DNA from: a bacterium
GTDB lineage: Bacteria > Patescibacteriota > Microgenomatia > UBA8517
DNA length: 64,000 nt
Assembly (NCBI GenBank): GCA_030583725.1
Contig: CP129472.1
Coordinates: 401,701-465,700, forward strand
Direction: 5' to 3'
Numbering within the stretch: position 1 is the first letter of the stretch; each line of letters starts with the position of its first letter. Shown piece after piece: positions 29,972 to 58,605 of the stretch. Below the pieces are notes generated by a model. The model did not search any database and was not told where the DNA came from. It saw nothing but the letters and a program-made list of their open reading frames with translations. The position numbers and the translations under genes were made by a program.

Positions 29972-30084
29972 ATTTATATTATATCTTTGTCGGAGATGAG
30001 TGAGTCGCACACTCGCCAGATGCACCCCATGCACCCATTCTACTCTTAAACTAATCTCCGTCAGAAACATTTTATCAAAAAACA

Positions 30085-45930: not shown

Positions 45931-46689
45931 TTATTTCGTTAATCCTCTCACTCCTCTTTTTCTTCCTTCAACTATTAAGTTGTTAGAATATTTCTTTTTA
46001 TTTCTAGTTTTTCCAACTGCTTTTTTACCCCAAGGTGTTTTTGGATACTTAAGACCTATTCCACTTCTGCCCTCACCACCACCATGTGGATGAGCGTTAG
46101 GATGCATGGCGACACCTCTTACGGTTGGCCTAATACCTCTCCATCTTGATGCACCTGCTTTACCTAATTTTTTATTCTTATGATCAACATTACCTACTTG
46201 GCCAATAGTTGCTCTACAAAGTGGGTCAAATCTTCTAATTTCAGTTGATGGCATTTTGATTAAAACACTTGTTTCATCTTTACCAAAAACAAAGGCTGCA
46301 ATACCTGCACCTCTTGCAATTTGTCCACCCTTTCCCGGTCTTATTTCAATATTGTATACTGAAGTCCCAACTGGAATTTTTGACAACGGTAAACAATTAC
46401 CAGTTTCTAATGGTGCATCATCTGATGCAATTACTTTCATTCCTTCAACTAGACCAACGGGTGCTATTATATATGATCTCGTACCGTCTTGATAGACTAG
46501 CCTTGCAATATCTGCATTCCTATTTGGATCATATTCAATTGCCTCAACTTTAGCCCACATATCTACTTTGACTCTTTTAAAGTCAATCATACGTAAAAAC
46601 CTTTTTGCCCTACCACCTTGGTGACGGACAGTAATTTTACCCTTACTTCTTCCTGAATTTTTCTTTAATAATATTTTTAGTTTTGCCAT
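45931..46689 (-). CDS. rplB: 50S ribosomal protein L2
   Basis: L2 N- and C-terminal domains (GRNxxGRIT-like, HPHGGGEG). Confidence 0.85.
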
Positions 46690-46734
46690 ATTTTTTATAA
46701 TTTTAGTTGCATTTTAAACAACAAGCTCTTTTTT

Positions 46735-47019
46735 TTATTTTTTCTTTTCTGTAAATAAATCAATTTTTCCAGATTTTAAAGTAATCAATACCTTCTTCTT
46801 TGCTTGTATCGTTTTAACTATTCCTCTCATTGTTTTCGATTTCATCTTTTTGTAATTTTGAGTTTTGATAGCATTGATTTTAATATCAAATGCTTTTTCT
46901 AAAATTACCTTTATCTGATTTTTAGAAAACTTTGGTAAAAACCAAAAGGAATACAGACCGTTTTTGGCTTGGTTTAGACTTTTTTCTGTATATATTGGTT
47001 TTATATTCATAATGTTCAT
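46735..47019 (-). CDS. rplW: 50S ribosomal protein L23
   Basis: L23 family. The start lies inside a 17-bp tandem repeat. Confidence 0.8.
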   Translation of the reverse strand: MNIMNIKPIYTEKSLNQAKNGLYSFWFLPKFSKNQIKVILEKAFDIKINAIKTQNYKKMKSKTMRGIVKTIQAKKKVLITLKSGKIDLFTEKKK

Positions 47020-47047
47020 ATATTCATAATGTTCATATATTCATAAT
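46999..47047. repeat. 17-bp tandem repeat (about 2.7 copies) at the rplD/rplW junction
   Basis: TATTCATAATGTTCATA occurs at 47004-47020 and 47021-47037, with a partial third copy. On the minus strand it contributes the MNIMNI start of L23. Confidence 0.6.
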
Positions 47048-47670
47048 TATTTTTTGGACTTCTCTTTTTCAAAACACTGACTATCAAAAATAATTAATTG
47101 AGACGTTAATACTTTAAAAGCATTTAATGAACTAAATTGAACCACCTCTAAATCTTTAATATTTTTTAAAAATCTAGAAAAAGATTGATTTTCTTTAGAA
47201 ATCACAAATACCACCTTTGACTTGACTGAAAAGTCTTTTTTAATTTTATCAACCATTTCACTAACTCCATTTGTTTTTAAAAACTTGTTTACTCCATTTA
47301 CTACAACAAAATCTCCAGCCTTAAAACGTTTAGAAAGAGCCATTGTTAAAGCTAGCTTTTTCATTTTTTCAGAAAGTTTTAATTGCCTTTTAACTCCCTT
47401 CGGTCCATGAGCAACGCCTCCTCCAACAAAAATGTGTGCTGATTTTGCACCATGTCTTGCTCCACCTGTACCTTTTTGCTTGTACAACTTTTTCCTTGTT
47501 GCGTTAATCTCAGACCTTGTTTTAACACGAGAAAGACCAAAATGAGTTCCATCCTCATAGACTCTAATGGCCTGTTTAAGTAAGCTTTCAGTTACCTCAA
47601 CTCCATAGATCTTTGGTAATACCAATTCTTTAGTATCCTTACCTTTTAATGTATATGTCTTTATTTTCAT
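47047..47670 (-). CDS. rplD: 50S ribosomal protein L4
   Basis: L4 family. Confidence 0.85.
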   Translation of the reverse strand: MKIKTYTLKGKDTKELVLPKIYGVEVTESLLKQAIRVYEDGTHFGLSRVKTRSEINATRKKLYKQKGTGGARHGAKSAHIFVGGGVAHGPKGVKRQLKLSEKMKKLALTMALSKRFKAGDFVVVNGVNKFLKTNGVSEMVDKIKKDFSVKSKVVFVISKENQSFSRFLKNIKDLEVVQFSSLNAFKVLTSQLIIFDSQCFEKEKSKK

Positions 47671-47671
47671 A

Positions 47672-48421
47672 TTAGTTCTTTGCCTCTTCTAAAACTGTTG
47701 CCGCTTCTGGGGCAGTTTCTGTCTTAGATTCTTCACCAGCAGGGCTTTCACCCTCAACAACTGTGGCTACTGCGTGATGTTCAAAATCTAAAGATCCAGA
47801 TTTTATCTTATTAACTGTCAAGAAAATTCCAACTCTTCCAGGAATTGGGCTTGAAAGTAATAGTTGATTGTTTTCTGCATCTATATCAACAACACGAGCA
47901 TTTTTAAATGTAACCTGAACTCCACCCATTCTACCCGCCATTCTCTTGCCTTTATAGACTCTACCTGGAGTTGTGGTCTGTCCTATTGATCCAGGAGCTC
48001 TGTGGCGATCACTTTGTCCGTGAGTCTTTGGCCCACCTCTAAAGTTATATCTTCTAACTCCACCAGCAAAACCTTTTCCTTTATTAACAGCAGTTACTGA
48101 AACAGTATCACCCTTTTTAAAGATATCAGAAACATTAATGATATCACCAACTTTGTAATTTGGTTCTGATGTCATTCTTACTTCTCTTACATATCTTGGA
48201 AAGTTTTTTTCTTTTGATTTGAGGTGGCCTTGAAGTGGTTTAGAAGTGTTTTTTGCTTTTCTGTTTCCGAATCCGAGTTGAATTGCCCAATAGCCATCAT
48301 TCTTTTCATTTTTAATTTGGGTAACTACACATGGGCCAAGTGTTACTTTTGTCACGGGAACTCTAGACCCGTCTATAAAAGTCTGTGTCATCTGTCCTTT
48401 TGTACCAAATAATGTTTTCAT
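47672..48421 (-). CDS. rplC: 50S ribosomal protein L3
   Basis: L3 family. It is not preceded by rpsJ here. Confidence 0.85.
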   Translation of the reverse strand: MKTLFGTKGQMTQTFIDGSRVPVTKVTLGPCVVTQIKNEKNDGYWAIQLGFGNRKAKNTSKPLQGHLKSKEKNFPRYVREVRMTSEPNYKVGDIINVSDIFKKGDTVSVTAVNKGKGFAGGVRRYNFRGGPKTHGQSDRHRAPGSIGQTTTPGRVYKGKRMAGRMGGVQVTFKNARVVDIDAENNQLLLSSPIPGRVGIFLTVNKIKSGSLDFEHHAVATVVEGESPAGEESKTETAPEAATVLEEAKN

Positions 48422-48437
48422 TTGCCGCGTGTCGTGT

Positions 48438-48472
48438 TTTAGAAAAAAATAAAAGCGCCGTAAAAGCGCTTA
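48438..48472 (-). terminator. terminator-like hairpin plus U-run in the rplC leader (candidate attenuator)
   Basis: The minus-strand RNA folds as AAGCGC-uuuuacg-GCGCUU followed by UUAUUUUUUUC. It lies between the promoter at 48539-48567 and the rplC ATG at 48421. Confidence 0.4.
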
Positions 48473-48524
48473 TCCTGCTTTTAGCATTCTTTCTTGAGGC
48501 TATCTTGTTAAATACACCTCCATA

Positions 48525-48569
48525 ATTTCTATTGGTGAATTATATCAAACTATATGACTTGTATCAAGC
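48525..48569 (-). promoter_or_regulatory. 45-bp repeated element copy 1, a near-consensus sigma70 promoter (TTGATA-N17-TATAAT) pointing at rplC
   Basis: Minus-strand reading gives -35 TTGATA (48567-48562), an exact 17-nt spacer and -10 TATAAT (48544-48539). About 110 nt upstream of rplC. Confidence 0.5.
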
Positions 48570-48835
48570 CACGCTTTCATGCTACACTTAGGCTCAAGAC
48601 GGGTATGGAAATTGTAACAAGCGTATTTAATGACGAAATTGTTATTGTCACAGGAAAGCCTGGAGATAAAACTATTCTTAGAACTCCACAACTTGGAGTA
48701 GCCCAAGCATTGGCCACTGCAAGGAACAATTTAGCAAGAACCAATCCTCTTGTTTGTTCAGATAACAATGAGAAAACTAAACCAGTTATGCCAAAAGTAT
48801 CTTTGGTAAGGTCAAATAATTAAATGAAGAGAAAA

Positions 48836-49057
48836 TTAACCTCTTCTCTCAGCACTACTATTTTGACCTTTTTCTTTCCTTTTTTCTAAAACTTCTTCGA
48901 CAGTTTCCTCTAATTGAGATCTTAATAATTCCTCTTTGGCTTCAGCACTTTCTAAAGCCAACCTAACAGTATCTTTTGAATAACCTGTTAAACCAGCCAA
49001 GAGAGAAATCTTAATTTCGTTAGGGATTTTTCTCAATTTATTAAAAACTACCTGCAT
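48836..49057 (-). CDS. small helix-turn-helix-like protein (hypothetical regulator)
   Basis: 73 aa. ISLLAGLTGYSKDTVRLAL resembles an HTH. It has its own TTGAAT-N18-TACTAT promoter. Its C-tail KGQNSSAERRG is paralogous to that of ORF 50477-50743. Confidence 0.35.
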   Translation of the reverse strand: MQVVFNKLRKIPNEIKISLLAGLTGYSKDTVRLALESAEAKEELLRSQLEETVEEVLEKRKEKGQNSSAERRG

Positions 49058-49138
49058 TTTATTATCAACAGATAGTACTCTCTTTTTTTTTTGAAATTCA
49101 AGAATTGTGATTTTTAATATTCCTGAGATAATATAAAT

Positions 49139-49723
49139 ATGTCCAACAAGAAAAATAAGGAAATCGAGATCCAGGTACAGGTTGAGAATATTAAAGGACT
49201 AAATAAGTTTCTTAGAGAAAAAGCAAAATTTATAAACAAAGAACATCAAGTAGATAAATACTTTTCCCCAAAAGATCGTAAGTTTTTAAAAGTCAGACCA
49301 GTAGTTGAGTGGCTTAGGCTACGAGATTCGTCGGATAAACAATCAATTAATTACAAAAATTGGCATCATGATAAAAATGGTAGAAGCCATTATTGTGACG
49401 AATATGAAACTCCTGTTGGAAATATGGAGCAAGTAGAGAAAATATTCAAATCGCTTGAGATAAAACCAATTGTTACTGTAGATAAAACAAGAAAAATATA
49501 TAAATACAAAGATTACGAAATTTCTATTGATTCCATTAAAGATTTAGGTAACTTTGTAGAAATTGAATATAAAGGTAAAAATACAACCAAAAGTCCAGCA
49601 AAAATCACAGAAGAAATGATTAAATTTTTAAAGGACCTAAATTGTGGAAAGATATCAAGAAATTATGTTGGCTACCCTTTTCAAATGTTATTTCCAAAAG
49701 AAGTAAAATACGAAATATTTTAA
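49139..49723 (+). CDS. CYTH-domain protein (triphosphate tunnel metalloenzyme / CyaB-like)
   Basis: N-terminal EIEIQVQV (E-x-E-x-K-like strand with Q at the Lys position), LRLR, DEYETPV and C-terminal FVEIEYKG acidic strands in CYTH order. 194 aa. Confidence 0.5.
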   Translation: MSNKKNKEIEIQVQVENIKGLNKFLREKAKFINKEHQVDKYFSPKDRKFLKVRPVVEWLRLRDSSDKQSINYKNWHHDKNGRSHYCDEYETPVGNMEQVEKIFKSLEIKPIVTVDKTRKIYKYKDYEISIDSIKDLGNFVEIEYKGKNTTKSPAKITEEMIKFLKDLNCGKISRNYVGYPFQMLFPKEVKYEIF

Positions 49724-49730
49724 TCAAAAA

Positions 49731-50372
49731 ATGCCAGATAATAATAACGAGAGGTTAAAATTATTAGAGAGGCAACCCGACTATGGAAAAGTAACAGTTT
49801 TAATTGGTCCAGATGGTGGAGGCAAAACTTACCTTTCAAATAAACTTCATGAAGATAATCCAGAAGCTATTTTAATTGATGGTACTCATCCACAAAACTG
49901 GCCTGTTTCAGATGAAAAGAAAAAGAGTCTTGCAAGATTAAAGGAAATTGGAGGTAATGATCCTAATTTTGATTATTATGGAATTTTAGGTTTAGAACTT
50001 CACAAAGTTATATATAGATTAGCAAAAGAAGGTAAAGATGTAATTGTAGACTCAGAACAAACTTTTAAATGGTTAATGTGGGAAGATATGAAAGGTAACT
50101 TAGACAAATCAATTCAAATACTAACAAGCAAAGAATTCAATGCAATTTTGCCAGATACAGTTAAGTACGTTGTTCCAGAAGCAGAAAGTTTTGATAAACA
50201 AGCAGAATTAATATGGGAACAGCAAAGCAGAAAATTACAATCAGAAGTAAGCCCTATTGACCCTAAAAATTTAGAGGAAGTTAAAACTAGACTTAAAGCT
50301 TCAGAAAATGTAATACTCGCACTTGAAAAGGTTGGAGTAATTGTTGAAGGAAAACCAAATTGGGTAAAATAA
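49731..50372 (+). CDS. P-loop NTPase, nucleoside/nucleotide-kinase-like
   Basis: Walker A VLIGPDGGGKTYL and a DVIVDSEQ Walker-B-like segment. 213 aa. The start lies 8 nt after the CYTH stop, indicating an operon pair. Confidence 0.45.
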   Translation: MPDNNNERLKLLERQPDYGKVTVLIGPDGGGKTYLSNKLHEDNPEAILIDGTHPQNWPVSDEKKKSLARLKEIGGNDPNFDYYGILGLELHKVIYRLAKEGKDVIVDSEQTFKWLMWEDMKGNLDKSIQILTSKEFNAILPDTVKYVVPEAESFDKQAELIWEQQSRKLQSEVSPIDPKNLEEVKTRLKASENVILALEKVGVIVEGKPNWVK

Positions 50373-50414
50373 ATTAATAACTAATTGGAATTTTAATAAT
50401 TACTCAATATAATC

Positions 50415-50459
50415 ATTTCTGATGGTGAATCAGATCAAACTATATGACTTGTATCAAGC
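50415..50459 (-). repeat. 45-bp repeated element copy 2 (degenerate promoter copy)
   Basis: 41 of 45 positions match copy 1. The -35 TTGATA and the 17-nt spacer are conserved, while the -10 is degraded to TCTGAT. Confidence 0.5.
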
Positions 50460-50476
50460 AATGGTTTTATAAAGTT

Positions 50477-50743
50477 TTAACTTCTTGCTTCAGTCCTACC
50501 ACCTTTTTGTTCAGCCTCAAGTTCTGCTTTGTATTTATTCATTTTGTCAATTAATGTTGGAGGTGGTTGTTCTCCACGACTTAACATACCTTCTACTAGT
50601 AATATAAAGGGTTTTCTAGAACGATCTTGTCTTTCTTTATATGTAGATAGACTGTCCCGTACACCTTTTGCAACATGTGCTATTATTCCAGAGCTCATTC
50701 CACCACCGCCTTGCCAAAAATAACGTTTACCCGACATTGCCAA
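50477..50743 (-). CDS. small hypothetical protein, paralogous to the HTH-like ORF
   Basis: 88 aa, possibly starting at the internal Met at 50698. TTGAAT-N17-TAATAT promoter upstream. C-tail QKGGRTEARS and the 3' nucleotides are homologous to ORF 48836-49057. Confidence 0.3.
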   Translation of the reverse strand: MAMSGKRYFWQGGGGMSSGIIAHVAKGVRDSLSTYKERQDRSRKPFILLVEGMLSRGEQPPPTLIDKMNKYKAELEAEQKGGRTEARS

Positions 50744-50815
50744 ATATTACTCTCTCTTTTTTTGAAATTCAACACACATATTAAAATCTTTGATTAAAGA
50801 TATTGTATAATCCAA

Positions 50816-51210
50816 ATGTATGAATCCGTAGGTATATTTAGCAGGACCAGGAAATCAATATGATCCAAGGAGGTCGATAGTTAAAAAAATAAAAGGTTTT
50901 AAATTTTATGATCCTGATACAGATTCTGATCAATCTTCATCAGAAACATTTTTCCCTCAAGATTTAACTGCAATCAAAAACTCAGAAATTTTAATTGCAA
51001 ACCCAGGCACTGCACCTGCAGAAGGAACATGGATTGAAATTGGATATTTTTACGCACTAAACACTAAAAAAGCTGGGGACTTTTGTAACAACTTGATAAT
51101 TATTTGGAACAAAGACAGAGTATCTTGGTCTATAGAATTTGTTAAAAAAACTGGCCATGTAGTTGGAACAGTTAAAGAAGCAATATCCAAACTCAGAGCG
51201 CTACACAATT
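50816..51210 (+). pseudogene. nucleoside 2-deoxyribosyltransferase-like gene with N-terminal +1 frameshift
   Basis: The frame from 50832 encodes VYLAGPGNQYD...PAEGTWIEIGYFYALNTKKAG (NDT-family YLAGP and E.G.A.A motifs) but has no start codon. An ATG at 50816 in the adjacent frame gives MYESV then stops. Deleting one nt near 50831 restores MYESVVYLAGPG. Confidence 0.5.
50984..51066. repeat. 83-bp perfect direct repeat, copy A (inside the NDT-like gene)
   Basis: Identical to 52258-52340 by eye over all 83 nt. Confidence 0.7.
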
Positions 51211-51285
51211 AGTCGTTAATCTAAATAGATCCAGTAAAGATATATCTATTGTGAATCGGTACAAGGATGTTGTGTTTAGTGACTT

Positions 51286-51942
51286 TTGATCCTGTGTTAT
51301 AATTCTTTTGTGCTTAAAAACAAAATTCTTGGCATATTAAATATACTTCTGAGTTTATGTTTTGCTTATTTTATATTCTCTGGAATTAAAAATGATGGTT
51401 TCCCGGAAATTTTTTCTTCTGAGATTTTTATATTTATTCTTTTTGTATTTTCACTGAGTATAAATATATTTGTAGTTTATAAAATGTTATTCAAAAATAA
51501 CGACAAGTTATCTTTTCCTTTGTATCTAGTATTAACCCTCTCAACTATATTTTGGTTTATATTATTGTTTGTTACTTATTTTTTTGCATCTAATTTCTTA
51601 TTTCATTTAATTATCTTGACTGCAATTTCTATTTTTTCTTACTTCCTTTATAAATTGTCAAAAAAGATAGCTTTAATGTTTTTAACTACGACTGTCTTTA
51701 TTTTGTTTATCTCAACTATAATTGGATTTAATAACGACTACTGTTGGAGAAAAGGAAGACAAGCTGATAAGACTGGAGATAAAATGATGGTTGCTACAAA
51801 AGAAGATGCTGAGTTACTTAAAAACTTTGGTGTTGTGAAAGAGGGAAATAAAATTGGAGTTAGTTTTAGAACTGAGATGTTATGCTATCAAACTTTCAAT
51901 TTCAAGGATGCTATTAGTGATCTTTTTCCAATCTTAAAGTAA
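51286..51942 (+). CDS. membrane protein with C-terminal soluble domain (hypothetical)
   Basis: About 5 TM helices followed by a 70-aa polar domain. Confidence 0.35.
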   Translation: MILCYNSFVLKNKILGILNILLSLCFAYFIFSGIKNDGFPEIFSSEIFIFILFVFSLSINIFVVYKMLFKNNDKLSFPLYLVLTLSTIFWFILLFVTYFFASNFLFHLIILTAISIFSYFLYKLSKKIALMFLTTTVFILFISTIIGFNNDYCWRKGRQADKTGDKMMVATKEDAELLKNFGVVKEGNKIGVSFRTEMLCYQTFNFKDAISDLFPILK

Positions 51943-52038
51943 CTTTTTACTTTATTACCTATTAACCCTTCGACTACTGCCAAAGTATAACTACAGGCGA
52001 TAACATTACAGAAAAAATTGTAATTAAATTTCTTATAT

Positions 52039-52257
52039 TTAAATAAGACTAAAGTGTTTAAATACATCAATTATTCCATTTTCATCCACACTTGGAGCTA
52101 TATATGAATTATTACTTCCTTTAGACAAGACAAGTTTTTTTAACTCTTCTTGTGAATTTCCCATAGCTGAAACAAACTTACAAAGCTCAATAAATTTCCA
52201 ATCTCTTGTACTATCACCGACCCCAAGCATGTTTTCAAAAGATATATTTGTTTCTTT
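52039..52257 (-). pseudogene. C-terminal fragment of a Cof-type HAD phosphatase
   Basis: VGDSTRDWKFIE...AMGNSQEELKKLVLSKGSNNSY...ENGIIDVFKHFSLI aligns to the last 70 aa of Cof-like hydrolases (GDxxND motif III, AMGNA). The first 200 aa are missing. The 5' end abuts copy B of the 83-bp repeat. Confidence 0.55.
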
Positions 52258-52340
52258 AGAAATTTTAATTGCAAACCCAGGCACTGCACCTGCAGAAGGA
52301 ACATGGATTGAAATTGGATATTTTTACGCACTAAACACTA
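52258..52340. repeat. 83-bp perfect direct repeat, copy B (rearrangement junction)
   Basis: Identical to 50984-51066. It supplies the spurious first 9 codons of ORF 52039-52284. Confidence 0.7.
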
Positions 52341-53102
52341 GATCAGTCGTTGCAATTGCATTTCTCCCTTTTGTCTTCCAAAGTGATTACCACCATATAA
52401 TATAACCCCATATTTTTCAAAAAGTTTGTATGGTGGGTCGCTTGTACGTTTCTTTGATTCAATAATTTTTCTAAGTTCATCAGAGGGCGACTTTAATGCT
52501 TCGATTGTCGTTCTTGATGCAACCATTAAACCTAATTGTGACTGAGTAATAAGACCCGATGTTGTAAGTCCTTGATGGCCTAAAGCTGCGCTAATTAAAA
52601 GACTTTGGAAATCTCCTAAAGTCCAAGTAACAGGAACGCCGTTAACTTTTGGAATCGTTTTCGAAAAATAACTTAGAAGATGATTTACTACATCATCTAA
52701 CGGATGTGAATGTATATGTGCAAATGTCCTCCAACCCGCTGGAAAAGGAATTGACTTCAATGTATTAACATGTTGATGCATCTCCTTCTGAGTTTTATCA
52801 GTCAAGCTTTCGTATTCACTACCTTCAAAAACCTTATTACTAATCATTAACTCTCCTGCGTCGTTTGTACCAATAACAGCATCGCGTTCAATCAAAATAC
52901 CAGAATCTGCTGATGTTGTATTTTTGCCACAATAAACACGGTGATAGATAGATTGAAAAAAGTTTCCATCAAGTGGAACTACAACTTTGTATGGAAACAC
53001 TTCTGGCTCTAAATCTGCCGAAACTTTAATAACTTGGCCAAAGTTTTCAAATGAATATGTTATAAAATCAGGTCTACTTGGAAACCCTACTGTTTTTTCC
53101 AT
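52338..53102 (-). CDS. hypothetical protein (H-x-H-S-H-P metal-site-like motif)
   Basis: 254 aa. The FAHIHSHP segment is loosely reminiscent of a JAMM/MPN H-S-H-P site, but the downstream S-x2-D is not evident. Confidence 0.3.
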   Translation of the reverse strand: MEKTVGFPSRPDFITYSFENFGQVIKVSADLEPEVFPYKVVVPLDGNFFQSIYHRVYCGKNTTSADSGILIERDAVIGTNDAGELMISNKVFEGSEYESLTDKTQKEMHQHVNTLKSIPFPAGWRTFAHIHSHPLDDVVNHLLSYFSKTIPKVNGVPVTWTLGDFQSLLISAALGHQGLTTSGLITQSQLGLMVASRTTIEALKSPSDELRKIIESKKRTSDPPYKLFEKYGVILYGGNHFGRQKGEMQLQRLI

Positions 53103-53133
53103 AAATTGTATTATATCAAAGATAAGAAGTTAA

Positions 53134-53784
53134 CTAATTCTGTTTTCTACTTTCAACAAACTTTTTTCCATGACCAATTTGTAAATTAATTGGTATATTT
53201 TGTTCACATAAAGGGCAATCTTTTTCATGATATGACTCGGCTTTTAAATTGGAAAGCGAAGAAAATGGAACACCCAACGTCTCAGAGTTAACTCCGTCAG
53301 GATTTCTATTAACCATAGTGCTAACCGCTGTAATCCTTCCACCAGCTTTAACAACACTTTCAACAACTTTCAATACAGAACCACCCGTTGTTGTTATGTC
53401 TTCAACTATTAAAACATCTTTGCCTTTTACCATTTCACCATATCCTCGTCTAAAAACTTGATCATTAAGTTCATCCTTTTCCGTATAAACCCCACTTATC
53501 TCTTTGCTTTTAAGCTGAGTTAAATGATATGCAGTCCATTGAGATAAAATTATTCCACCAACTGCTGGACCAACTACAACATCTATATCCAGATACTGAT
53601 GTCTTTCGGCAAACATTCTACAAACCATAGTTGTTTCCATGGGGTGCAAGTACATTGCATCTTTATTTACATATACTGATCCATGAAGTCCTGAAGTGTA
53701 GACAAAATGACCATTGGTATAGACTGCTCCGACTCTTTTAAAAAGATCAAGAAGTGGATCAACCCCTTCAAATTCTATAGTCAT
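53134..53784 (-). CDS. type I phosphoribosyltransferase, PyrE-like, with C-terminal Cys pair
   Basis: GHFVYTSGLHGSVYVN (compare PyrE GEFTLKSG..SPYFFN), PRPP-binding VLIVEDITTTGGS, and a C-terminal CPLCEQ. Confidence 0.6.
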   Translation of the reverse strand: MTIEFEGVDPLLDLFKRVGAVYTNGHFVYTSGLHGSVYVNKDAMYLHPMETTMVCRMFAERHQYLDIDVVVGPAVGGIILSQWTAYHLTQLKSKEISGVYTEKDELNDQVFRRGYGEMVKGKDVLIVEDITTTGGSVLKVVESVVKAGGRITAVSTMVNRNPDGVNSETLGVPFSSLSNLKAESYHEKDCPLCEQNIPINLQIGHGKKFVESRKQN

Positions 53785-53842
53785 TTTGAAATGATAACAT
53801 AGAATTAATATAAAGTTGTTTTTTTGGTTATTGTTGTAAAGA

Positions 53843-54106
53843 TTGTTGAGTGGTATTTTATTACTAATGGCACCTGAAGCTTTAGTTATAGTGAATAGTG
53901 GGCAATCTAGTGATGAAATGACTGAAAGATTACGGCTAGCTGGGATTAAATTTCGAGAAATGAAAGTGGAAGGTGAAACAGTCCAAGACGAGACAGGGGT
54001 TCGCCAAGTTCCAGTTATAATTACAAGAGAAGGCGACTTTACTTCAGATGGGTTAGAGAATTATTTAGAAATAAAGGCAGAACAGACAAGATTAAAAATA
54101 CGATAA
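53843..54106 (+). CDS. Cys-less NrdH/glutaredoxin-like small protein
   Basis: Fold-level resemblance to NrdH (beta-alpha-beta with VPVIIT..GDF), but SGQS replaces the CxxC. Noticeably GC-richer than its surroundings. The true start may be an internal Met. Confidence 0.3.
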   Translation: MLSGILLLMAPEALVIVNSGQSSDEMTERLRLAGIKFREMKVEGETVQDETGVRQVPVIITREGDFTSDGLENYLEIKAEQTRLKIR

Positions 54107-54116
54107 TATTTTAAAA

Positions 54117-54446
54117 ATGCCAGCAGAACGAATACACGTAACTAAAGAGAATGCTGGGATAGCAGTGGCCTCAGGAATACTACTTGGAGCTGGAGTTATC
54201 TTTCCACCGGCGGTAGGATTAGGAATTGCTGTTGGCGCCGTGGGGGTTGTAAGAGAAGAGCGACATCAACGAGATGTTCAAATGGAAAATCTTAAAAACT
54301 ATATCGAATCTAGTCTCAGGGGTAAAGCTCCGGATGAAATTAGACCAACTATTGAGGAGTTAACAAAACGAATCACAGAAGGTCGTGATCTTCAAGATAG
54401 ATTTGACGCTGTCGAAGAACTTGCTCGTAGAATTGAAGATTCATAA
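54117..54446 (+). CDS. membrane-anchored hypothetical protein
   Basis: 109 aa with a Gly/Ala-rich TM hairpin and a charged C-terminal helix. GC-richer. Confidence 0.3.
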   Translation: MPAERIHVTKENAGIAVASGILLGAGVIFPPAVGLGIAVGAVGVVREERHQRDVQMENLKNYIESSLRGKAPDEIRPTIEELTKRITEGRDLQDRFDAVEELARRIEDS

Positions 54447-54472
54447 AATTATACCTAGTTTCCACACCACTC

Positions 54473-54775
54473 TTACATCTTAATTTCTATGGAGACACCT
54501 GCTGGAAGATCCATATTGCCTAATGAATCTACTGTTCTTGGGGTTGGGTCAATTATATCAATTAGTCTTTTATGAATTAAAACTTCATAATGTTCTTGAG
54601 CATCTTTATCTGTAAATGGAGATTCTTTAACGGACATCAAGGTCCTATCAGTTGGGAGTGGGGTTGGTCCAGAAATTTTAGCACCTGAAGCTAGGGCGAC
54701 ATCTATAATCTTTGATGCTGCCTCATCTATTACTCTATGATCGTAAGCTTTTAGCTTAACTCTAAGTCTTTGCAT
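54473..54775 (-). CDS. rpsJ: 30S ribosomal protein S10
   Basis: RLRVKLKAYDHRVID...HKRLIDIIDPTP is the canonical S10 sequence. It directly follows tuf, but about 6 kb separate it from rplC. Confidence 0.9.
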   Translation of the reverse strand: MQRLRVKLKAYDHRVIDEAASKIIDVALASGAKISGPTPLPTDRTLMSVKESPFTDKDAQEHYEVLIHKRLIDIIDPTPRTVDSLGNMDLPAGVSIEIKM

Positions 54776-54821
54776 AATGTGCGACGCCGTTAGGCGGTTA
54801 CTTGATAAATAATGGGATGGA

Positions 54822-56024
54822 TTAGGCTATAATTTTTGTGATAACACCTGCGCCTACTGTGTGTCCACCTTCACGAATTGCAAATCTCAAACCATCTTCC
54901 ATAGCTACAGGTACAATTAGTTTAACTGTCATTTTTGCACTATCTCCAGGCATAACCATTTCTACACCTTCAGCTAGTTTAACTTCACCTGTAATATCTG
55001 AAGTTCTAATAAAGAATTGTGGTTTGTATCCTGTAAAGAATGGTGTATGTCTTCCACCTTCGTCCTTAGATAGGATGTAAACTTCTGCTTCAAATTCTGT
55101 ATGAGGTGTAACTGAACCAGATTTTGCTAAAACTTGACCTCTTTCAACTGCTTCCTTGTCAATACCTCTTAAAAGTACACCAACATTGTCACCAGCCATT
55201 GCAGAATCAAGAAGTTTTCTAAACATTTCAAGACCTGTGACAACTGTTTTTTGTGTATCCTTGATACCTACAATTTCAATTTCTTCGTTGACTTTAATTT
55301 CTCCTCTTTCAACCCTACCTGTGACAACTGTTCCACGACCTGAAATTGAGAAAACATCTTCAACAGGCATAAGAAATGGTTTTTCTGTATCTCTTACTGG
55401 ATCTGGAATATATGAGTCTGCTGTTTTCATTAATTCTAAAATACCCTTTTCTGCTTCAGCATCACCTTCAAGAGCCTTAAGTGCTGAAACTCTAACAATT
55501 GGGGTTTCTGCTCCTGGGAATTGATACTTTGTTAACAATTCTCTAATATCTGCTTCAACCAACTCAAGAAGTTCTGGATCATCCATTGCATCACATTTGT
55601 TTAATGCAACTATCAAAGACGGAACATTGACTTGTCTTGCTAAAATTACGTGTTCTCTTGTTTGAGGCATAGGTCCATCTGGAGCTGAAACAACTAAGAT
55701 TGCTCCATCCATTTGGGCTGCACCTGTAATCATGTTCTTAATGTAATCTGCGTGACCTGGAGCATCAATATGAGCATAATGCCTTTTGTCTGTTTCATAT
55801 TCAACGTGGGAAATATTGATTGTAACTCCTCTTTGTTTTTCTTCTGGAGCTGAATCAATTTGATCAAAAGCGTAAGCTTTATTTACTCCACCTGGGAAAT
55901 TCTTTGCAAGTACTGTAGTAATAGCTGCAGTTAATGTGGTCTTGCCGTGATCAACGTGACCAATTGTCCCAATGTTTAAGTGGGTTTTTGTTCTATCAAA
56001 TTTTTGTTTTGCGTCTGCTGCCAT
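54822..56024 (-). CDS. tuf: elongation factor Tu
   Basis: [27 protein letters not shown] and the full 400-aa EF-Tu. Confidence 0.95.
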
Positions 56025-56091
56025 AGTTTTTGTATTATAGTTTTTTCTCTCTCAAAAAACAAGAGGCATATCTTTGCCTCAAGAGATTGTA

Positions 56092-56120
56092 TTATAGTTG
56101 AAGCTAGTAAAAAGTGTCAA
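56092..56120 (-). promoter_or_regulatory. sigma70-like promoter upstream of tuf
   Basis: Minus-strand reading gives TTGACA (56120-56115), an 18-nt spacer and TATAAT (56097-56092). A second AACTATAATACAA copy lies at 56029-56041, just before the ATG. Confidence 0.4.
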
Positions 56121-56173
56121 CACCCAAATTTGAATTGCAACTTAAATTAAGTATGTGTTAAAATAACCAAAAT

Positions 56174-56425
56174 ATGGAAAGAGAACCTGGTTATCAAGTT
56201 ATTGTTTACACTAGAATACTACCAGACGGTTTTAAAGGTCCAACGTTTCTCAGAAAAATAATGAGTTATCTCTCCGAAGGTAAGAATGAAAGCATTGGTA
56301 ACTCTTGGCCAGGTATGGATATTGAGGAGGCAAAAAGATTAGCAGGTACACGAACTATATCGTCGTATACAGATGGTAGGGGTCAATTAAGATCTTCAAA
56401 GGGTGTTGTCGTGAGAGTAAGTTAA
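56174..56425 (+). CDS. small hypothetical ORF on the opposite strand between tuf and fusA
   Basis: 83 aa with no obvious SD and no motif. It occupies an unusually long (412 nt) tuf-fusA spacer. Confidence 0.2.
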   Translation: MEREPGYQVIVYTRILPDGFKGPTFLRKIMSYLSEGKNESIGNSWPGMDIEEAKRLAGTRTISSYTDGRGQLRSSKGVVVRVS

Positions 56426-56436
56426 ATAAATTTTTT

Positions 56437-58605
56437 TTATCCTCTTGCCATTTCGACTTTTCCAGCTTTTTCTACAATCTGTGCGGCAATATGAGATGGA
56501 ACCTCTTCATAGTGTGATGGTTCTACGAAAGCTCTAGCTCTACCTTGTGTTAGAGACCTTAACTTTGTTGCATAACCTGAAAGTTCAGCTAGTGGTGCGG
56601 TTGCATAAACAACTGTTTCTCCCATTTTCTCTTCTGTTCCTGAAATTTGTGCTCTTTTACTTGAAAGGTCTCCCATAACATCACCCATATATTCTGCAGG
56701 GGTAAAGACCTCAACCTTCATAATTGGCTCAAGTAGGCACATATCAGCTTTCTTTATTGCATCTTCAACAGCTAAAGATCCCGCAATCTTAAATGACATT
56801 TCTGACGAATCGATATCGTGGAAAGTTCCATCATAGACAACTGCCTTGATATCAACCATTGGATAGCCTGCCATAATTCCGTTTTCAAGTTTTTCTTTAA
56901 CACCCTTTTCAATTGCAGGAATATATTCTTGTGGAATTGCACCACCTTTAATTTCTGACTTAAATTCAAAACCTTCACCTCTGCCTCTAGGCTCAACTTT
57001 AATGAAACAGTGACCATACTGACCACGACCACCAGTTTGTCTAATATACTTACCCTCACCATCACCATTTCTCTTAATTGTTTCTTTATAAGCAACTTGT
57101 GGCGCTCCAGTTGTGGCTATGACGTTAAACTCTCTTTTCATCCTATCTACCAATACCTCAAGTTGAAGTTCACCCATACCTGCAATGATAGTTTGACCTG
57201 TTTCAGGATTACTCTTAATTCTAAACGTTGGATCCTCGTCTGAAAGTTTGTTTAATGCCAAACCCATTTTTTCTTGATCTGATTTTGTAGCAGGTTCAAT
57301 TGCAAGTGAAATGACAGGTTCCGGAAAAGTAATTGACTCCAAATGAATAGGGTGTGCAGGGTCACAAATAGTATGTCCCGTAGTTGTATCCTTAATACCA
57401 ACAACAGCAACAATTTCTCCCGCATATGCTTCTTCAATTAATTCTCTCTGATCTGCATGAAGTAAAACCAATTTTCCAATTCTTTCACTAATTTGCTTAT
57501 TTGCGTTATATACTGTTTGACCCGTCTTTAAGACCCCTGAATAGACTCTAACATAGACTAAACGACCGACATGGGGGTCAGTCACTACTTTAAAGGCAAT
57601 GCCTGAAAATGGTTGGTCATTTCTTCTCTCTCGTGTTTCAACTTCTCCTGTTTTTGCGTTTGTTCCTTCAATTGCTGGAATATCGATAGGAGATGGCAAG
57701 TATTCAACAACACCATCAAGTAAAAGTTGTGATTCTGCTGATCTATTGTCACCCCCAAATACTGGGAAGAATTTACCAGCTATAACACCTTTTCTGATTG
57801 CTCTTTTAATCTCTAGCTCTGTTGGCTCTTGACCTTCTAAGTATTTTGCCAATGCCTCGTCGTCAAATTCAGAAACACTTTCAATCAACTCTTGTCTGTA
57901 CTTCTTGGCAGTTTCTAAAAGATCTGCAGGAATTTCTTCTTCTGTCAATTTTGGATCTTCTATAGCTTTATAAGTTAAAGCCTTCATTTTAACTAAATCA
58001 ATTACGCCTCGATGAGCGTGTTCTTGACCAATTGGATAGGTAACAGGTGAAGCATTGGCCTTTAATCTTTCACGAATAGATTTAATTGAACCATCAAAAT
58101 CAGCTCCAATTAGATTAAGTTTGTTTAAAACACAAATTCTTGGAACATTATATTTGTCTGCTTGTCTCCAAACAGTTTCAGACTGAGATTCTACTCCCGT
58201 TCTTCCATCAAAGACCATTAAAGCACCATCTAATACCCTTAAGGATCTCTCAACTTCTGCTGTAAAATCAATATGACCCGGGGTATCAATCAAATTTATT
58301 CTGTAGTGACCCTTTTCAACTGAAGAATCTTCCTTTAAATCCCAAAAGGCTGTGATTGCCGCAGAAACAATAGTAATTCCTCTTTCCCTTTCTTGTGCCA
58401 TCCAGTCAGTAACTGTTGTTCCGTCATCAACCGAACCTTGTTTGTAAGTCCTACCTGTCTCAAAAAGAAGTCTTTCTGTAGTTGTTGTCTTACCAGCATC
58501 AATGTGGGCAATTATTCCTAAGTTTCTAATTTTATCCAATGAAACATTACGGTCTTTGGTAGCCGTCATAACCATTGCTGACTTTTTTGCTTTTTCCTCT
58601 GCCAT
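56437..58605 (-). CDS. fusA: elongation factor G
   Basis: AHIDAGKTTTTE, DTPGHIDF, NKLNLIGA and domains I-V. 722 aa. Confidence 0.95.
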   Translation of the reverse strand: MAEEKAKKSAMVMTATKDRNVSLDKIRNLGIIAHIDAGKTTTTERLLFETGRTYKQGSVDDGTTVTDWMAQERERGITIVSAAITAFWDLKEDSSVEKGHYRINLIDTPGHIDFTAEVERSLRVLDGALMVFDGRTGVESQSETVWRQADKYNVPRICVLNKLNLIGADFDGSIKSIRERLKANASPVTYPIGQEHAHRGVIDLVKMKALTYKAIEDPKLTEEEIPADLLETAKKYRQELIESVSEFDDEALAKYLEGQEPTELEIKRAIRKGVIAGKFFPVFGGDNRSAESQLLLDGVVEYLPSPIDIPAIEGTNAKTGEVETRERRNDQPFSGIAFKVVTDPHVGRLVYVRVYSGVLKTGQTVYNANKQISERIGKLVLLHADQRELIEEAYAGEIVAVVGIKDTTTGHTICDPAHPIHLESITFPEPVISLAIEPATKSDQEKMGLALNKLSDEDPTFRIKSNPETGQTIIAGMGELQLEVLVDRMKREFNVIATTGAPQVAYKETIKRNGDGEGKYIRQTGGRGQYGHCFIKVEPRGRGEGFEFKSEIKGGAIPQEYIPAIEKGVKEKLENGIMAGYPMVDIKAVVYDGTFHDIDSSEMSFKIAGSLAVEDAIKKADMCLLEPIMKVEVFTPAEYMGDVMGDLSSKRAQISGTEEKMGETVVYATAPLAELSGYATKLRSLTQGRARAFVEPSHYEEVPSHIAAQIVEKAGKVEMARG

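Follow-up and report, generated by a model that had tools for sequence, protein, structure and literature searches.

In cyanobacteria and plastids, rps10 is linked to the str cluster and travels with tuf, and rpsJ and rplC lie far apart in the genome. In Escherichia coli, an attenuator that responds to L4 precedes rpsJ (PMC3616713), and multigene insertions at the operon boundaries of the ribosomal supercluster have been documented in Gammaproteobacteria and Bacilli (PMC8046335). The present analysis concerns a 64,000-nucleotide stretch, from this point on called the window (contig CP129472.1, positions 401,701 to 465,700), of a Woesebacteria chromosome (Microgenomates, Patescibacteria), in which rpsJ (S10) and rplC (L3) are separated by an islet of 6051 bp. 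On the minus strand of the window, rpoC, rpsL-rpsG, fusA, tuf and rpsJ are followed by this gap and then by rplC through the spc and alpha genes. An earlier reading of the same DNA, made from its letters alone (the sequence-only reading), had placed both genes correctly and put about 6 kb between them. The account we favor, with a probability of roughly 0.6, is that these 6 kb are a recombination-shuffled, strain-variable accessory islet that is rich in nucleotide-handling enzymes, sits at an operon boundary and is partly decaying.

The features of the locus are as follows, with lengths of predicted proteins in amino acids (aa), "o" numbers for open reading frames (ORFs) and L numbers for contigs and loci compared with the window. 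Half of the islet genes are opposite in strand to the ribosomal genes.

47672-48421, minus: rplC (L3), which opens the ribosomal-protein operon that it leads; ORF of 249 aa, with PF00297 found in the identical gene of L005
48422-48567, minus: predicted promoter and leader of rplC
48554-48823, plus: o89, a doubtful 89-aa ORF overlapping the promoter repeat; without a family match or a homologue in L088, L089 or L096
48836-49057, minus: o73, small protein; homologues of 91 aa in L088 and 72 aa in L089
49139-49723, plus: CYTH protein or triphosphate-tunnel metalloenzyme (TTM), 194 aa; Pfam CYTH, TIGR00318
49731-50372, plus: P-loop NTPase, kinase-like, 213 aa, starting 7 nt past the CYTH gene; weak AAA_33 matches
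50412-50470, minus: 59-nt degenerate repeat of the rplC promoter region, matching 48522-48580 at 85% identity
50477-50743, minus: o88, small protein; homologues of 90 aa in L088 and 81 aa in L089
50820-51212, plus: nucleoside 2-deoxyribosyltransferase (NDT)-like gene, inactivated by an in-frame TAG at codon 4; PF05014 borderline
50984-51066, plus: copy 1 of the 83-bp repeat, within the NDT-like gene
51310-51942, plus: membrane protein, 210 aa, GTG start; homologue in L089, and the product with GTG start is on record in L093
52039-52257, minus: C-terminal remnant of a Cof-type HAD phosphatase (pseudogene); Hydrolase_3, E 9e-07
52258-52340, plus: copy 2 of the 83-bp repeat, an orphan NDT fragment abutting the stop codon of the JAB-like gene
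52338-53102, minus: o254, 254 aa, an intact member of a rare family of JAB/MPN+-like metallohydrolases
53134-53784, minus: PyrE-like type I phosphoribosyltransferase (PRTase), 216 aa, 31 nt upstream of o254
53843-54106, plus: o87, a small protein, start uncertain
54117-54446, plus: o109, small protein, N-terminal segment hydrophobic and tail charged, convergent with rpsJ across a 26-nt gap
54473-54775, minus: rpsJ (S10), 46 nt downstream of tuf and probably the last gene of the tuf unit

The evidence that carries this reading comes from comparison of spacer alleles, beginning with L003, a contig from a fourth sequencing run (SRR22388160). L003 is nearly identical to the window on both sides of the islet (100% in the 3' end of tuf, 99.3% in rpsJ and 99.6% over the first 456 nt of rplC), yet its spacer measures 387 bp and holds one 73-aa opposite-strand ORF, which is unrelated to the islet and homologous to one in the next species, L007. 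The leader of L003 is only about 60% identical to that of the window. A divergent rplC in L003, as the 90.8% identity over the BLAST segment might imply, was rejected upon segment-wise alignment, in which the coding sequence is 99.6% identical and the leader alone differs. Judged by these alignments, near-identical strains hold different alleles of the entire spacer, including its promoter.

Three further contigs, whose rpsJ DNA is 77-82% identical to that of the window, carry related but reshuffled islets, with the following order of genes from rpsJ.

L088: YunG (minus), o73 homologue, JAB-like, intact NDT-like (same strand), NUDIX-like (weak, minus), o88 homologue, rplC promoter
L089: JAB-like, o88 homologue, membrane-protein homologue (minus), o73 homologue, rplC promoter
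L096: cytidylyltransferase-like (minus), 96-aa ORF (minus), JAB-like, intact NDT-like (convergent), contig end

The JAB-like gene is present in all four alleles and the NDT-like gene in three of the four, and order, orientation and content are different in each. The window allele holds both the L088 type of arrangement, o88 followed by a promoter (here with a degenerate -10), and the L089 type, o73 followed by a promoter.

An L3-protein scan of GTDB species representatives provided the wider comparison. It yielded 80 loci, mostly from Woesebacteria, Gottesmanbacteria, Levybacteria and other Microgenomates, the best match having 76% L3 identity. The spacers on either side of rpsJ in these loci are distributed as follows.

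rpsJ-to-rplC spacer: n = 73, median 190 bp; >300 bp in 27, >500 bp in 22, >1 kb in 16; maximum 4.4 kb
tuf-to-rpsJ spacer: n = 70, median 60 bp; >300 bp in 5, >500 bp in 5, >1 kb in 3; maximum 2054 bp

Thus, the linkage of rpsJ to rplC, which the sequence-only reading had treated as inviolable and its interruption as highly unusual, is frequently loosened in this clade, with 22 of 73 spacers exceeding 500 bp and 16 exceeding 1 kb. In L033 and L071, no rpsJ occurs inside the 10 kb upstream of rplC. About one third of the related species have an occupied spacer, and the occupants are diverse, ordinary genes, including NAD-dependent epimerases, RmlD-like, GT87 and Mur-ligase-like proteins, a DegT aminotransferase, a Crp-type regulator, NUDIX, a histidine phosphatase and an IS200-like gene (L030). 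An FtsJ/TlyA-like methyltransferase lies in the spacer of four Woesebacteria-like species (L018 8606-9181, L021 9291-9845, L024 8368-8925 and L025 9393-9827); this rRNA methyltransferase is the recurrent occupant, and the remaining cargo is idiosyncratic. Searches by tblastn found no homologue of any islet protein within 10 kb on either side of rplC in the 80 GTDB species, and therefore the spacer cargo of other species is unrelated to the islet. Comparative synteny thus confirms a variable spacer in the clade and overlapping gene sets at the site in three lineages. The sequence-only reading had named the same interruption in related genomes as the finding that would count against it; those three lineages come close to this, but their content is reshuffled. 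In Microgenomates, additional genes often gather at the rpsJ-rplC junction, which has the look of an operon boundary.

The boundary itself is suggested by the region upstream of rplC. A near-consensus sigma-70 promoter is predicted there (TTGATA-17-TATAAT with an upstream TG, 48567-48539), and the leader that follows contains a ATGGAGGTG-N12-TAG motif at 48523-48500, with a 7-codon mini-ORF (MEVYLTR-stop), and then a GC hairpin at 48471-48453, with a T-run that reaches about 48443 and leaves 22 nt to the ATG of rplC. The layout in relatives is alike, with TTGCGT-17-TATAAT, a leader, and then a GC hairpin and T-run. Of 71 relatives, 66 have a terminator-like hairpin in the 120 nt that precede rplC, whereas random windows from the same loci have one in 2.8% of cases, and the median distance from T-run to ATG in the hairpin-bearing rplC leaders of relatives is 22 nt. 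In the Woesebacteria subgroup, the leaders of nine species carry ATGGAGGTG-N12-TA(A/G), once per locus and only 75-125 nt upstream of rplC. The leader is also found upstream of rplC in L003 (972-1078), L009, L010, L012, L017, L019, L020, L021 and L054. When 12 rplC leaders were folded together with RNAalifold, the terminator helix alone was supported, three of its seven pairs showing compensatory changes. In single-sequence folds, the Shine-Dalgarno (SD)-like GGAGGTG of the mini-ORF is paired in a hairpin. For the upstream leader hairpin no covariation is claimed, as it forms in single sequences but in shifting registers.

A search of 46000-57000 against Rfam 15 returned no leader-family match at E<=1. 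The sole tRNA-like match, at 50871-50937 on the plus strand inside the NDT pseudogene (23 bits, E 0.41), is probably noise; ARAGORN finds no tRNA there.

So little room remains after the hairpin that transcription of rplC must pass through it, and the structure is therefore attenuator-like rather than an end-of-operon terminator. The rplC leader is a candidate ribosomal-protein attenuator, positioned before rplC and not before rpsJ. On the other side of the islet, 46 nt separate tuf from the start of rpsJ, and no promoter is predicted in this gap. The predicted promoter and leader of rplC, together with the promoterless tuf-rpsJ gap, imply two units, one comprising tuf-rpsJ and the other running from rplC onwards.

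If the site is indeed an operon boundary between the tuf-rpsJ and rplC-led units, insertions would be tolerated there for that reason. The conserved ribosomal genes on either side may then act as homology arms, through which whole spacer alleles would be exchanged between lineages. Two repeats in the window would be the marks left when unequal or illegitimate recombination placed two types of allele one behind the other. The sequence-only reading had pointed out both a duplicated promoter element and an 83-bp perfect repeat, and both are there. The promoter copies cover 59 bp and are 85% identical; the second retains the -35 (TTGATA), has TCTGAT as its -10, and is collinear with the arrangement in L088, where the o88 homologue is likewise followed by the promoter. 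The 83-bp repeat is perfect. The TAG stop of the JAB-like gene is formed by the last three bases of its second copy, and the orphan NDT fragment that this copy represents is oriented as is the whole NDT-like gene in L096. We read this copy as a probable relic of the convergent JAB/NDT arrangement seen in L096. The perfect identity of the 83-bp copies, compared with 85% for the other duplicate, points to a recent duplication or a gene-conversion patch. A single rearrangement step yielding the 83-bp repeat from an L096- or L088-type arrangement was also sought, and none could be derived.

A perfect repeat of this length is a classic site for a wrong join, and short-read graphs break there, so a chimeric join at the 83-bp or 59-bp repeats had to be considered; misassembly at such repeats had been named in advance as a finding that would undo the sequence-only reading. 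Independent Logan assemblies were found by exact-protein look-up (DRR859381, SRR24881069 and DRR779146). Contigs from these three other samples match the window at 99.96-100% identity through both junctions of the islet with the ribosomal genes. L001 and L002 span tuf-rpsJ-o109-o87-PRTase-o254, L005 spans o88-P-loop-CYTH-o73-rplC plus 10 kb of ribosomal genes, and L004 and L006 span the two island junctions. The copies of the 59-bp repeat, as well as both junctions, thus fall inside single contigs (L001, L002, L005). Across 2.57 kb, L006 differs from the window only in a homopolymer at 49092 (A10/A9), in the o73-CYTH intergenic region. The Logan contigs end exactly 30 nt inside each copy of the 83-bp repeat, as is expected of a k=31 graph, and the 1251-bp contig L093, found in two samples, corresponds to window positions 51037-52287, which is the inter-repeat segment with 30 nt of repeat on each side. 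With A, B and C as the unique segments and R as the repeat, A-R-B-R-C is the sole linear path that uses each unique segment once, and segments A, B and C, each with the expected 30 nt of repeat, recur in all three samples. The source contig, a MAG contig (locus tag QY322_02600), measures 841,695 bp. Misassembly of the islet is very unlikely, and an artefactual join keeps next to no probability.

The str cluster has a second, smaller interruption in the window, a fusA-tuf spacer of 412 bp (56025-56436) that is also found in L001. It contains a perfect TTGACA-18-TATAAT promoter (56120-56091, minus), a hairpin and T-run within 10 nt of it (stem 56080-56063), and an 83-aa ORF on the opposite strand (56174-56425).

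The cargo does not appear to be one machine. It would comprise several small transcription units, mostly of enzymes for nucleotide and nucleoside salvage and sanitation: the PRTase followed by the JAB-like gene, CYTH followed by the P-loop gene, the NDT-like pseudogene, the HAD remnant and the small proteins. Pfam and NCBIfam searches uphold the assignments that the sequence-only reading gave to the CYTH, kinase-like P-loop, truncated Cof-type HAD and PyrE-like ORFs. The CYTH protein scores 83.8 bits against PF01928 (cut-off 23.2, E 1.7e-23) and 89.2 bits against the TIGR00318 "cyaB" equivalog (cut-off 57.95), and among solved structures the Sulfolobus TTM Saci_0718 is nearest to it (E 1.5e-17). 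The N-terminal motif of CYTH/TTM proteins is ExExK. Here it reads EIEIQ, with Gln where ExExK has Lys. Its neighbor has a Walker A sequence, GPDGGGKT, and just weak AAA_33-type matches. CYTH and P-loop genes form a conserved adjacent pair that occurs elsewhere in the genome in L090/L091 and L092. In L090 (7561-9145) and L091, which represent another Patescibacteria lineage, the pair follows rplM-rpsI and two mevalonate-pathway genes and precedes an NADAR gene.

The NDT-like protein scores 28.7 bits against PF05014, whose cut-off is 28.8, and the intact L096 homologue scores 26.9. In L088 and L096 the homologues are intact, share 83-87% identity with this gene and encode Gln at codon 4, the position of the stop in the window sequence MNP-stop-VYLAGPG; the independent contig L005 has the same nonsense sequence. 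This gene is thus inactivated and NDT-like, as had been proposed, but by an in-frame TAG and not by a frameshift. The HAD fragment covers only positions 194-254 of the 255 in the Hydrolase_3 profile (PF08282), and the 83-bp repeat lies upstream of it. By its profile scores the PRTase is PyrE-like type I; it reaches 141.1 bits against the pyrE_Therm equivalog TIGR01367 (cut-off 150.25) and 42.6 against Pfam Pribosyltran (cut-off 26.3). Its family, with >2282 homologues at E<=1e-20, is common in Microgenomates, and in relatives it occurs in other contexts, once near pyrF. The nucleotide theme suggested by the sequence-only reading therefore survives in part: several nucleotide-active folds are present, and other alleles repeat it (NDT-like in L088 and L096, cytidylyltransferase-like in L096 and a weak NUDIX in L088), but the NDT-like and HAD genes of the window are dead.

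The two largest of the remaining ORFs, the 254-aa JAB/MPN-like protein and the 210-aa membrane protein, had no place in the sequence-only reading. The former, o254, is full length, as its homologues share its C-terminus. Its family is rare: 1.84 billion clusters yielded 28 representatives at E<=1e-3, and a metagenome scan with a single JAB-like protein gave 2 loci only. Outside the window, the gene lies at 900-1673 in L088, 197-964 in L089, 6998-7768 in L096 and, split, 3475-4243 in L087, where it is frameshifted and stands in another context, near HAD_PNKP and Rad52 genes. An AlphaFold2 model built from seven close homologues was unusable (predicted local distance difference test, pLDDT, of 36), whereas one built from 23 family members, remote ones included, reached a pLDDT of 88. 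This model has a JAB fold and resembles Cap3 and BilC, among many other JAB proteins. Across the family (19-23 members), E72, H131 and H133 show next to no variation, and conservation of S161 and D164 is 90% or higher, giving the motifs H131-S-H133-P and S161-x-x-D164. A PDB profile search aligned AfJAMM on the HSHP motif at E 0.09. Pfam models for JAB, Prok-JAB and RadC gave no match to o254, and one family member matched RadC at E 0.25.

Members of two small-protein families (73-91 aa) accompany the JAB-like gene, as o73 and o88 in the window, at 602-877 and 2714-2986 in L088, and at 1021-1266 and 1996-2214 in L089. Four of these six proteins end in -RG (AERRG, AERRG, IERG and ELRG), and none has a family match. 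Read by eye, o73 is putatively helix-turn-helix-like; its gene is followed by a terminator-like hairpin at 48846-48826. The sequence-only reading had seen two paralogous small-gene modules here. BLASTP shows no similarity between o73 and o88, and this relationship was rejected; the duplicated part is the rplC promoter region. Nor does its label of a Cys-less NrdH-like protein for the 87-aa ORF find a counterpart, as searches of Pfam, NCBIfam and PDB sequences returned no match.

With the inventory complete, other explanations of the islet can be weighed. The islet, or a core of the JAB-like and NDT-like genes with the small proteins, might be a conflict or signalling module (anti-phage or based on a nucleotide second messenger) lodged at a recombination-accessible site, as the sequence-only reading had entertained. 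The resemblance of the JAB fold to Cap3 and BilC would fit, as would the -RG endings of the small neighbors, the presence or absence of the islet at the level of strains, and the NDT-like, PRTase, CYTH (a cyclase-related fold), NUDIX-like and cytidylyltransferase-like genes that accompany the JAB-like gene in different alleles. Nevertheless, no E1/E2, cyclase-effector or sensor partner is present, and PADLOC-DB 2.0 matched no islet protein except for a noise-level hit of the PRTase to ShosT (E 0.0086, no passing domain). A viral-contig scan and tblastn against phage collections likewise produced nothing for the JAB-like protein and only a marginal result for the P-loop protein, so the defence alternative has gained no support from these searches. 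Furthermore, the NDT-like gene is nonsense-mutated and the HAD gene fragmentary here, the CYTH protein is nearest to a characterised triphosphatase-type TTM and is found with the P-loop protein among housekeeping genes elsewhere, and the PRTase family is ubiquitous in the clade. We consider a conflict module unlikely. Its narrower form, in which the constant core of JAB-like, NDT-like and two small-protein families would be an undescribed nucleotide-centred conflict or small-protein-processing module, cassette-swapped via rpsJ/rplC homology arms, is quite unlikely.

Retention of genes at this site by four lineages, always with the JAB-like gene and in three with the NDT-like gene, and the recurring nucleotide theme could also reflect functional coupling of the cargo to the ribosomal genes, that is, an old, selected lineage feature that supplies nucleotides in a highly expressed region. 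Such coupling is quite improbable given that order, orientation and content vary in every allele, that the near-identical strain L003 is devoid of the whole islet, that spacers in the closest GTDB species measure 70-590 bp, that half of the genes oppose the ribosomal genes in strand and that two have decayed. Derivation from an integrative mobile element that left only a remnant, or delivery to this site by a transposon, would account for the strain-specific presence and the internal direct repeats, and an IS200-like gene does occupy the same spacer in the relative L030. Searches of Pfam, NCBIfam and PADLOC, however, found no integrase, transposase or recombinase domain in any islet ORF, as the sequence-only reading had said of its mosaic island. 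There is no tRNA in or beside the islet (the only tRNA gene of the window is at 29989-30060), and no flanking attachment-type repeats were seen, the repeats being internal (a promoter copy and a gene fragment) and not terminal. The composition is also native, with a GC content of 0.326 versus 0.344 and a tetranucleotide distance of 0.0111, where other 6-kb chunks range from 0.0083 to 0.018. A mobile-element origin is accordingly given very little probability.

Several points weigh against the accessory-islet reading itself. The promoter, the attenuator and the boundary between operons are predicted from sequence and conservation, and the recombination mechanism is drawn from the comparison of alleles. 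L088 and L089, at 2.3-3.1 kb, run only from inside rpsJ to the rplC promoter, and L096 breaks off short of rplC, so these alleles are incomplete. The perfect 83-bp repeat, too, fits no single rearrangement step. Finally, in every allele the JAB-like gene adjoins nucleotide-active enzymes (its neighbors across alleles being NDT-like, PRTase, cytidylyltransferase-like, NUDIX-like and HAD), which could mean a tighter functional unit.

On the accessory-islet reading, the rpsJ/rplC junction in Microgenomates would be a recurrent site of accessory-gene accumulation and strain exchange and not a fixed link. This matters for binning and phylogeny, which the syntenic ribosomal-protein block serves. It also bears on ribosomal operon organisation outside the model phyla and offers a route to strain-variable genes in reduced genomes. 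Two leads are more original than the islet, namely the conserved promoter-terminator leader of rplC and the rare, divergent JAB/MPN-like family.

The comparison with known systems places each of these elements. Relative to JAB/MPN+ (JAMM) metallopeptidases (AfJAMM, Pyrococcus JAMM1, Rpn11/CSN5, Cap3, BilC and RadC-like JAB proteins), o254 is set apart by a gap of about 27 residues between HxH and SxxD, versus about 7-10, by extra N- and C-terminal regions, and by neighbors that are nucleotide-active enzymes in place of a ubiquitin-like, E1 or E2 partner. The rplC leader has the layout of the E. coli S10 leader (PMC3616713), in that a promoter is followed by a leader with a terminator hairpin a few tens of nt before the first gene of an L4-encoding operon. 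It differs in preceding rplC, in having no sequence resemblance and in its SD-like ATGGAGGTG and mini-ORF element. In the E. coli-type S10 operon, rpsJ and rplC are a few tens of bp apart; here the distance is 6051 bp, and the predicted promoter and the hairpin with its T-run are upstream of rplC and not of rpsJ. As in cyanobacteria and plastids, rpsJ stays with tuf, but rpsJ and rplC remain neighbors with a variable spacer between them. Like genomic islands and integrative elements, the islet is a strain-specific mosaic block between conserved core genes; unlike them, it has no integrase, tRNA or attachment repeats and is host-like in composition. A further likeness is to the system described in 2019 (PMC6735719), where ordinary chromosomal genes likewise occur at a transcription-unit boundary of the ribosomal supercluster, with no mobility genes or signs of distant transfer, and the new gene order does not persist but changes from one related lineage to another. 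The Woesebacteria locus departs from that system in its Patescibacteria host and in its boundary, rpsJ/rplC, which is inside the E. coli-type S10 operon. It departs further in its strain-level polymorphism, 6 kb versus 387 bp between flanks that are 99-100% identical, and in alleles that share a shuffled gene pool.

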